From Leucoraja ocellata (Eukaryota): a stretch of 64,000 bases of DNA. Shown here one piece after another: positions 28,145 through 31,821 of this stretch. The stretch is from NCBI GenBank assembly GCA_036785375.1, contig JAWMAR010000471.1, positions 372,001 to 436,000 on the forward strand, read 5' to 3'. The first letter of the stretch is position 1, and every line of letters begins with the position of its first letter. Both the position numbers and the translations under genes were made by a program. Below the pieces are notes generated by a model. That model made no database searches. It saw only the letters and a list, made by a program, of their open reading frames with translations, and was not told the origin of the DNA.

Positions 28145-28678
28145 ATGTTGCCAAATCAACAATCGGTTCCGGGCAACCGAGCGAAGGATATCCTTTTTGC
28201 TTTGTCGCTGTATCTCTCCTTGTCTGGTGAGTTTCAGTTGAAAGACACTGGCGCCCTTTACATTTGTTATCATTCCACTCGAATCTCTTCCGGAATAATC
28301 AGCGGTTTCAGGGTTTAAGCATCGTTCTGCACCTCCCTCTGACGACGCAATGAACTATCCCGTCTCTCCGTTTAATTTGCAGGTACGTTCAGTCAGCAAG
28401 TTCTACAGAGCCCGCCTGCGGTAAGTCGGATGGAGTGCCAATCTGTTAGTATCACCTGTCGCTTCACTAATGACGCTGCCGCCGGGTACAAATTGGAGCG
28501 CTGGCTTGTCTTCAGGAAAGCCGAATCCGACGCAAACCGGGAGTTGGTGTTACCCGGCGGGCGATTTGTCGCGGCCACAAGTGCGACGGAAAACCCATTT
28601 ACTCTCAAAATTCTGCTTTTGAGAATTGAAGACAGCGCCAACTATTACTGCAAGGCCCAGTACAGGGACTGGAGCACA
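28145..28678 (+). CDS. NAR-TCR V gene segment, IgNAR-like V domain (leader 28145-28226, V exon 28383-28678)
   Basis: 82-nt leader ...ILFALSLYLSLS+G|gtgagt splices to ttgcag|GT; QQVLQSPPAVSRMECQSVSITC...FRKAESDANRELVLPGGRFV...FTLKILLLRIEDSANYYCKA follows the VNAR pattern RKxxxxxNxExxxxGGRY/F with the short C'/C'' region; extra Cys in FR1. Confidence 0.9.
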
Positions 28679-28716
28679 CACTGTGGCGAATCTGCCGCGT
28701 TTGGTTCACAAAAACC
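28679..28716 (+). other. Long-spacer RSS of the NAR-TCR V
   Basis: CACTGTG-22-ACAAAAACC (alternatively CACACTG at 28677 with a 24-nt spacer); perfect nonamer. Confidence 0.88.
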
Positions 28717-29036
28717 CCAACTGCTTGAGAGGAAATGAATGGACTTGACTTGGAAATTAATTCACCGCAAAAGTCCATGCCTCGCGTTTATCCCTCCAAT
28801 TGTTTCTTCGTATAGCGCTTCCTATAAAGGCCGCTGCAGTTCAAATGTTGCGTTTGCCAAGGAGGATTGCTTTGCGCGGGATTCGACATCGAAGGGGATT
28901 CAACACCGAACAACAGCTGTTGAACAGGAACTAAGCATATCATTTCCCTACTTCCGACAAGAGCAGGACGTTGCTCTTGAGAATGGGACCGGGATTCCTG
29001 GTCTACGCCGTTCAACCCATGTCGGCCGAGCTGCAA

Positions 29037-29064
29037 GGATTTTGTGCTGATTGCAAGCAGTGTG
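29037..29064 (-). other. 12-RSS of the NAR-TCR J
   Basis: + strand GGATTTTGT-12-CAGTGTG immediately 5' of J. Confidence 0.9.
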
Positions 29065-29130
29065 TGTCTGCCTGGGGAGAGAAAGCCGAGTATGTGGATG
29101 GAACCGGGACGGAGGTGACTGTGACATCTG
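29065..29130 (+). CDS. NAR-TCR J segment (66 nt)
   Basis: SAWGEKAEYVDGTGTEVTVTS+G|gtaagt: xGxGT-x-V-T-V J motif, phase-1 donor, 12-RSS. Confidence 0.9.
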
Positions 29131-29631
29131 GTAAGTCCGGCCGAAAATCGCCCATTCGCAGTTAATCACACGTTCACAGAAACCATTGCATTTGGTAAGT
29201 TTGACAAAGAGTCTGCAATGGAAACCGCTGACAGGAGGTTCGCCTTGTTTCACTGTCCGAAAATGAACGCATTCAGGATACTGTAAAATACGCAAATATG
29301 GATGAATGAAGAGGCATTCTAGAGGTTGGCATTTTGCAAGAATTGCATGTTTATTTGTTTAAATTGGACCACAAATTGCTCAAATATTTATGAATCCCTA
29401 CGATGAAAAGTTGTGATTATGCACTCGACAAATCATTTGGGCAGCTTACAACCCAGCGGTATGAACGTTGATTTTATTTTTCTACTTTCAAGTAACTCCT
29501 GAATCTCTTCCCCCACCCTCTCATTGTCCAACCCCCACCCTAGTCGTTCTACTAGTTCCATTATTCATATCGTTGTATCCCTGTTGTTAGCACACCCCCA
29601 GCCAACAATGGGCCAATATGTATTCTATTCT

Positions 29632-31470: not shown

Positions 31471-31782
31471 CTCTGGAAAGGAAATCCAGCGTGCATCAGA
31501 ACCCGCGTGTGCAGTTCGCCGATGCCGGACGCCGCGTTACCTTAAAGTGTGTATATTCAGGTTATTGTCACTTTGCTGTATCCTGGTACCGACACTCACC
31601 AGGGCAAGCACCGATGTATCTGCTCAGCACACTCACATCGGGTGCGGAAGGTGAAGACGAGGATCCCGGGGACCGGTTTGTTGCTTTGCACGAACCGTCT
31701 GAGAACATGGTTTTGCTCGAGATCCCCAAACCACAAATCAGCGACACTGCTGTATATCACTGCGCACTACAGCCTCGCCTCA
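31471..31782 (+). CDS. Leaderless supporting TCR-delta V segment of the NAR-TCR cassette, intact
   Basis: tttctgcag|CT acceptor in phase with the NAR J donor; ALERKSSVHQNP...VTLKCVYSGYCHFAVSWYRHSPG...SDTAVYHCALQPRL; extra CDR1 Cys; no leader exon found between J and this exon. Confidence 0.9.
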
Positions 31783-31821
31783 CACAGTCGTACACAGCAG
31801 AGGCGCAGCCGTACAAAAACA
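31783..31821 (+). other. 23-RSS of the supporting V
   Basis: CACAGTC-23-ACAAAAACA. Confidence 0.92.

Follow-up and report, generated by a model that had tools for sequence, protein, structure and literature searches.

A NAR-TCR cassette without a free D segment in Leucoraja ocellata, best read as an old germline D-J join

The NAR-TCR cassette described here is real and inherited, and it is best read as an old germline D-J join, one of several in its locus. It lies in a window (the whole stretch of 64,000 nucleotides that was analysed: assembly GCA_036785375.1, contig JAWMAR010000471.1, positions 372,001 to 436,000 of the forward strand). The D and J of this cassette were probably fused by a RAG-type join in the ancestral germ line. 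In a germ cell, RAG would have paired the 3' 12-bp signal of the D with the 23-bp signal of the J. Both paired signals would then have been deleted together with the roughly 310-330 bp between them, about 7-9 nt would have been trimmed and the D sealed to the J, leaving the 5' 12-bp signal of the D in front. In a thymocyte, V(22) would join DJ(12) by deletion, with one join instead of two for the outer domain, and the joined exon would splice to the supporting V-delta after that V had undergone its own V-D-J join.

NAR-TCR was reportedly described by Criscitiello in 2006 as a doubly rearranging TCR-delta of cartilaginous fish. Germline joining is textbook knowledge for shark immunoglobulins, and pre-joining has barely been reported for T-cell receptors. 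A literature search returned no paper reporting a germline-joined NAR-TCR; how new the finding is, and how shark signals are laid out, may also depend on three further studies (Criscitiello 2006, Ott 2021 and Deiss 2019). The mechanism is not new; the setting, a NAR-TCR cassette, is.

Anatomy of the focal cassette

The features of the cassette, in window coordinates, are as follows.

28145..28226, + strand: leader exon, 27 codons plus 1 nt, GT donor at 28227
28383..28678, + strand: NAR-TCR-type V exon, open, V-set match, 27-nt tail after the second Cys
28679..28716, + strand: V recombination signal, heptamer 28679-28685, 22-nt spacer, perfect nonamer 28708-28716
28717..29036, + strand: D-free interval, 320 nt, with the length of the V-to-D interval of the paralogues and weak sequence homology to it
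29037..29064, - strand: 12-bp-spacer signal facing the V, 1+1 mismatches to consensus, putative former 5' signal of a D
29065..29130, + strand: J-like segment, 66 nt, J frame reading SAWGEKAEYVDGTGTEVTVTS, donor GTAAGT at 29131
31471..31782, + strand: supporting V-delta exon with an open frame, a CDR1 Cys and an acceptor whose phase fits the J donor
31783..31821, + strand: supporting V signal, 23-bp spacer

A V tail running nine codons past the second Cys and a J of 66 nt had both been given in a preliminary description of this DNA, and both measurements hold. The same description had the V joining the J directly under the 12/23 rule, and this stands: the 22-bp signal of the V and the 12-bp signal of the segment are compatible and in deletional orientation, with open frames and splice sites in phase. 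An alternative 24-nt spacer reading of the V signal, starting at 28677, is possible; the 22-nt spacer is the norm among the V signals of the family. The G-rich, D-like start ascribed to the J is present as a G-rich stretch that begins 5 nt in, not at the first base. The interior of the segment contains no heptamer, and thus no signal remnant.

The marks of NAR-TCR set out in part of PMC1845163 are a Cys in the a-b loop, the absence of the WYRK Trp and a supporting V-delta with a CDR1 Cys. The focal cassette has a NAR-type V with its own leader, in which the WYRK position reads VFRK and so is without Trp, and the extra a-b loop Cys (C18) is invariant in 9/9 aligned Vs; VNARs are among the best single-domain matches of this V. 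The supporting V exon, about 2.3 kb downstream of the 66-nt segment, is equipped with the CDR1 Cys, the in-phase acceptor and a signal of its own. Like canonical NAR-TCR, the cassette combines a leader, a NAR-type V, its own J and a downstream supporting V-delta, a two-V build that batoid gene models share. Unlike canonical NAR-TCR, it has no free D between V and J, carries a 12-bp signal on the J-bearing segment and would need one join for its outer domain. Because the free D is missing, it is a variant of the NAR-TCR cassette and not a canonical one.

At the family's start-codon position the focal leader reads AAG (28184-28186) and an upstream ATG, kept in organisms C, D and E, is used instead, giving a leader of 27 residues versus about 15.

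Absence of a free D segment

That no GTG trinucleotide lies between the V and J nonamers, as had been claimed, was confirmed for all 320 nt of 28717-29036, where the two CACs (28763 and 28904) are both without a nonamer. GTG is also absent from 47 of 3000 dinucleotide shuffles and, when the window is cut into overlapping 320-mers free of N, from 165 of the 3028, and the six paralogous V-D intervals checked have two to six GTGs each, yet no D inside. The absence of GTG is mildly unusual, and it is the layout of the paralogues that provides the real evidence for a missing D. Since the signal scan of 28717-29036 gave no usable D signals and the paralogue layout agrees, the earlier claim that the cassette has no free D is confirmed. 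A cryptic D, GGGGATT at 28894, was rejected: it has no flanking signals and is not conserved, with deletions directly after it, at 28902 and 28906, in organism E.

Inheritance across samples and organisms

The focal layout is germline-inherited. A second sample of organism A spans the focal stretch with one substitution and a 5-nt deletion in the interval, and organisms B and D each span it on one contig (12 substitutions and 0 gap letters for B; 59 substitutions and 20 gap letters for D). Organism C spans 28744-29237 collinearly; in organism E the part covered is 29008-29207, gap-free and with 13 substitutions. Neither a joint nor a large insert was found among the stretches spanned in the second sample and the four other organisms, and recurrence of the same layout in all of them rules out a somatic join or an assembly error. 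Among the 12 indels listed of 14, one is coding (2 nt at the V 3' end, organism D), and the 19 leader and V substitutions, among 40 entries listed of 170, create no stop.

Subsamples of three RNA raw-read runs of organism B, amounting to about 1, 3 and 5 reads in every 100, contained 0 focal reads, which speaks neither for nor against transcription. No C-delta was found on the focal contig among the best 150 of 618 C1-set candidates; the PF09291 profile, used in the search for C-delta, had no match anywhere, and nor did the one strict D pattern that was run, results that do not amount to evidence of absence.

The NAR-TCR family in this genome

A protein search of the animal's own genome returned 28 matches, comprising 21 cassette Vs and seven dispersed pseudogenes; copy counts for the family are upper bounds, as contigs C1182 and C2754 may be haplotigs. 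Ten of the 21 cassettes have the split layout V(22)-(12)D(12)-(23)J, with a V-D interval of 315-326 bp and a D-J interval of 311-329 bp. All of the free Js (14/14) bear 22/23-bp spacers and none a 12-bp spacer. The preliminary description had started from a 12-D-23 arrangement, a premise that fails here, where the D is 12-D-12 and the J is 23. Nineteen cassettes could be scored (L020 has lost its D and J, and L014 runs into N), and nine of these are half-joined: the focal cassette and eight paralogues, four of them D-J and four V-D. On contig C471 alone, six of 15 scorable cassettes are joined.

These comparisons remove two arguments that had been made from length. V tails measure 24-25 nt in split cassettes already, 27 nt in the focal one and 37-41 nt in V-D joined ones, so that a long V tail does not point to fusion. 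The long J falls in the same way, because free Js range from 43 to 66 nt. The preliminary description had itself named equally long V tails and Js in cassettes retaining a D as evidence against its reading, and on these lengths the split paralogues provide it.

The focal cassette exists in one copy, has no close relative and is separated from its nearest neighbour among the cassettes by 430 kb; its V shares 54-66% nucleotide identity with the four paralogous Vs compared. A tree of V nucleotide sequences places the young D-J joins in one clade and the young V-D joins in another, each surrounded by split copies, whereas L023 and the focal copy branch outside on long branches. None of the 21 Vs diverges more than the focal one, on which the midpoint root falls, a position that carries a long-branch warning, and rooting with conventional and supporting Vs did not fix the root. 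If the split layout is ancestral, the family would have undergone at least four joining events.

Among named proteins, two-V gene models of Amblyraja, Leucoraja and Pristis come closest (13/28 matches). The protein searches gave no cDNA or orthologue of the focal V lineage, the matches being gene models of other lineages. In one Pristis gene model, P0010, the V runs directly into a J-like stretch, which could reflect either a cassette that is fully joined or an error of gene prediction.

Several minor features of the family were also noted. The D 5' signals of the paralogues, with 5-6 mismatches, are much weaker than the focal 12-bp signal. D cores and J 5' ends diverge strongly between cassettes whose intervals are more than 90% identical (L005-L024; J 43-66 nt), and several of these J 5' ends include a D-like TTGGGAC; such divergent coding ends could reflect diversifying selection or older germline joins. 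L006 and L011 have repeat-like sequence upstream of the V where other cassettes have the leader. The seven dispersed NAR-TCR-like V pseudogenes (L025-L031, on contigs C7, C10, C2063 and C2073) contain two stops each; in the three of seven tested, a search reaching 120 nt from the Cys turned up no signal heptamer, and J-likeness was not above shuffles.

Young germline joins in paralogues

The young D-J joins are the best place to read the joining mechanism. They are found in L017 and L019 (C471) and in L021 and L022 (C2754, whose copies may be haplotigs), about 415-491 nt after the V Cys, and were read in this one genome assembly. In all four the joint consists of an intact 16-nt D, 2 nt and an intact 58-nt J with an open J frame, with no signal remnant. 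Their flanks and V-D intervals are 92-94% identical to split copies, and the J-flank partner L005 is 83-84% identical. The 2-nt insert of L022 is a palindrome of the D end, which fits P nucleotides (such a 2-nt match has a chance of 1 in 16). The insert of L017, L019 and L021 reads GT, one base off the palindrome, for which we infer a CpG change.

Germline V-D joins are present in L008, L009, L012 and L023, where V tails of 37 and 41 nt end in D letters and a 12-bp signal on the V, weak in L023, faces a 22/23-bp J. In L008, L009 and L012, a trimmed V is joined to a D that matches the D of L013 at most positions.

An extract of PMC2193156 gives criteria for a germline RAG-joined gene: presence in the germline of several individuals, removal of the inner signals without remnant, split relatives nearby, P nucleotides or trimming, and early-life expression. 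The focal cassette is in the germline of the second sample and of four organisms, and its 66-nt segment is as clean of inner signals as L017, L019, L021 and L022. Nesting among close split genes is seen for the young D-J and V-D clades; the focal copy has no such relatives, and its joint is too diverged to show P nucleotides or trimming directly.

Origin of the 12-bp signal and the J-bearing segment

A 12-bp signal on a J is anomalous in a family whose free Js all have 22/23-bp spacers, and a lost D-J interval is therefore needed. From position, nonamer and layout, it is very probable that the 12-bp signal is that of the D and that RAG acted. The signal lies 320 bp behind the V nonamer, and in all 14 paralogues that keep it the 5' signal of the D is found at 315-326 bp; D-J intervals, at 309-329 bp, have much the same length. 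Its nonamer has an off-consensus A at position 3 (a GGAT start), shared with 14/14 D 5' signals and with 0/14 J signals. The segment behind it opens with TG, as do 8/10 free Ds, and 13/14 free Js open with G. Comparison with the paralogous cassettes, which the preliminary description had called for, speaks against a D fused to the V end; the start of the segment matches the D of L010 at 11/16 letters, a left-anchored score that 23/300 shuffles reach, and a model of D plus trimmed J is equalled by 29/300 shuffles. The putative D remnant would take up roughly the initial 16-18 nt of the segment, and the rest would be a trimmed J. The young D-J joints exceed this 66-nt segment by 10 nt.

The interval itself resembles V-D intervals only slightly more than D-J intervals. 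Pairwise z values across six paralogues are 1.6-2.5 against V-D intervals and 0.1-1.5 against D-J intervals, and a V-D profile scores 1.8 bits on the focal interval (5/400 shuffles), with the 5' end alone matched; the 3' end of the interval matches neither the V-D nor the D-J profile. The germline D-J fusion that keeps the 12-bp signal of the D, one of the options first put forward, is the best reading given the layout of the 20 paralogues.

Position, spacer and nonamer of the D's 5' signal would be kept equally well by a germline hybrid joint, in which that 12-bp signal paired with the 23-bp signal of the J and was sealed directly to the J, so that the D is gone and the cassette has the V-J build of a light chain. 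In part of PMC2193153, hybrid joints are put forward as a way in which signals are swapped in the germ line, and no trimming is needed, as 66 nt is also the length of the longest free J (L023). However, the first 26 nt of the segment match intact J heads poorly (74/300 shuffles; 267/300 when left-anchored) and a D slightly better, and D letters are kept in all eight other joined paralogues, which makes a hybrid joint unlikely. Judged by these alignments, the first 26 nt appear to lean to D over J, without significance.

The age of the focal joint, too great for RAG marks, would also suit a deletion in which RAG had no part, removing about 380 bp from within the coding end of the D to within that of the J and kept for its usable 12/23 pair. 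Comparable damage is seen in L020, where D and J were lost by an unrelated break just behind the D spacer and the supporting V was kept. Such a deletion is nonetheless improbable: both of its ends must land in windows of about 15 nt, and the young joined paralogues end at or near signals, with no signal remnant.

There is very little probability that the D was deleted and the 23-bp spacer of the J then shrank to 12 bp. In raw identity the focal signal reaches 14-17/28 with D signals and 17-19/28 with J signals when an 11-nt spacer deletion is freely placed, and by eye the spacer of the L006 J is in part similar to that of the focal signal. However, this route takes two independent events via a non-rearranging 22/23 state, and the GGAT nonamer start is D-type. 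We consider it just as implausible that the cassette is a relic of an ancestral D-less V-J arrangement, with Ds arising later in other lineages. The divergence of the focal V and its place at the midpoint root would fit such a relic, and several origins are assumed for D segments (PMC2193153, in part); yet the root is unsettled, NAR-TCR is V-D-J in the nurse shark according to part of PMC1845163, and the other two old lineages (L006, L023) contain a D. A V-D fusion, also raised at the outset, would account for a V tail 2-3 nt longer than in split paralogues, but genuine V-D joins pair their 37-41-nt tails with a 12-bp signal whereas the focal V keeps its 22-bp signal and a normal tail, and this option, like a somatic or assembly origin, has next to no probability.

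Comparison with known systems

Germ-cell RAG joins with P nucleotides are described for shark immunoglobulin genes in part of PMC2193156, as are VD-J and VD-DJ clusters (extract of PMC5192425), the joined VJ of NS4 and pre-joined Ds in IgNAR (extracts of PMC2193156, PMC5192425, PMC4279169 and PMC8692893) and 22-bp spacers in IgNAR (extract of PMC8692893). Like these partly joined shark and skate clusters, the NAR-TCR locus has joined and split copies together, clean removal of signals, short P-like inserts and fixation in the population. It differs in being a TCR locus with D-J joined and the V free, and in that the focal copy is an old single-copy lineage without a close split sister.

Among T-cell receptors, the marsupial TCR-mu V-mu-j is germline-joined, with retrotransposition proposed (extract of PMC7615758), and the newt TRD V-J is germline-joined as well (extract of PMC12698447). 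These too are inherited pre-joined segments in a TCR-delta-derived chain. Unlike the focal cassette, however, they are fully joined, and V-mu-j is the supporting domain of TCR-mu, whereas the focal cassette has a half-joined antigen-facing domain and retains its introns and one pair of signals, and the joining recurs in one locus. One supplementary file of the elephant-shark report (PMC3964593) gave 0 matches. Further background is provided by parts of PMC12227049, PMC6795676, PMC3457774 and PMC5931798.

Receptor diversity and significance

Joining of D to J in the germ line, or loss of the D there, is the likely history of the focal cassette as judged from its sequence. With the D-J join, the product is predicted to have a single N region, a D read in one frame only and a CDR3 of around 19 residues. 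An untrimmed join of the focal V and segment is out of frame, and a loss of 2 nt gives 19 CDR3 residues. The CDR3 of about 20 residues put forward earlier would not be unusually long, as the untrimmed template is 59 nt versus 63-70 nt in the split cassettes L007, L006 and L010. The diversity of the focal receptor is predicted to be lowered, not abolished. Because N nucleotides are added in large numbers at shark junctions, a semi-invariant product does not necessarily follow; diversity could still come from the one junction, with its added N nucleotides, and from the entire second V-D-J join.

The presence of half-joined cassettes at nine of 19, of at least four events of different ages and of split sisters beside the young joins would extend germ-cell RAG activity from immunoglobulin clusters to a TCR locus. 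A more ambitious and rather doubtful proposal is that RAG repeatedly recombined the TCR genes of skate germ cells and that selection kept the oldest product, single-copy, open and with a near-perfect 12-bp signal, in at least five species, where it may seed a low-diversity, early-life or innate-like subset. The locus also offers a natural experiment, in which a single animal allows split, V-D-joined and D-J-joined cassettes to be set side by side as to their use, their timing and the diversity of their CDR3s. We know of no ligand for NAR-TCR, and a cassette that is conserved and inherits most of its CDR3 offers a practical starting point.

Four conventional Vs lie upstream in the same orientation, with near-perfect 23-bp signals at 2046, 10708, 18382 and 24025. 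The strong focal 12-bp signal might also accept these, which would place a conventional V atop the supporting V.
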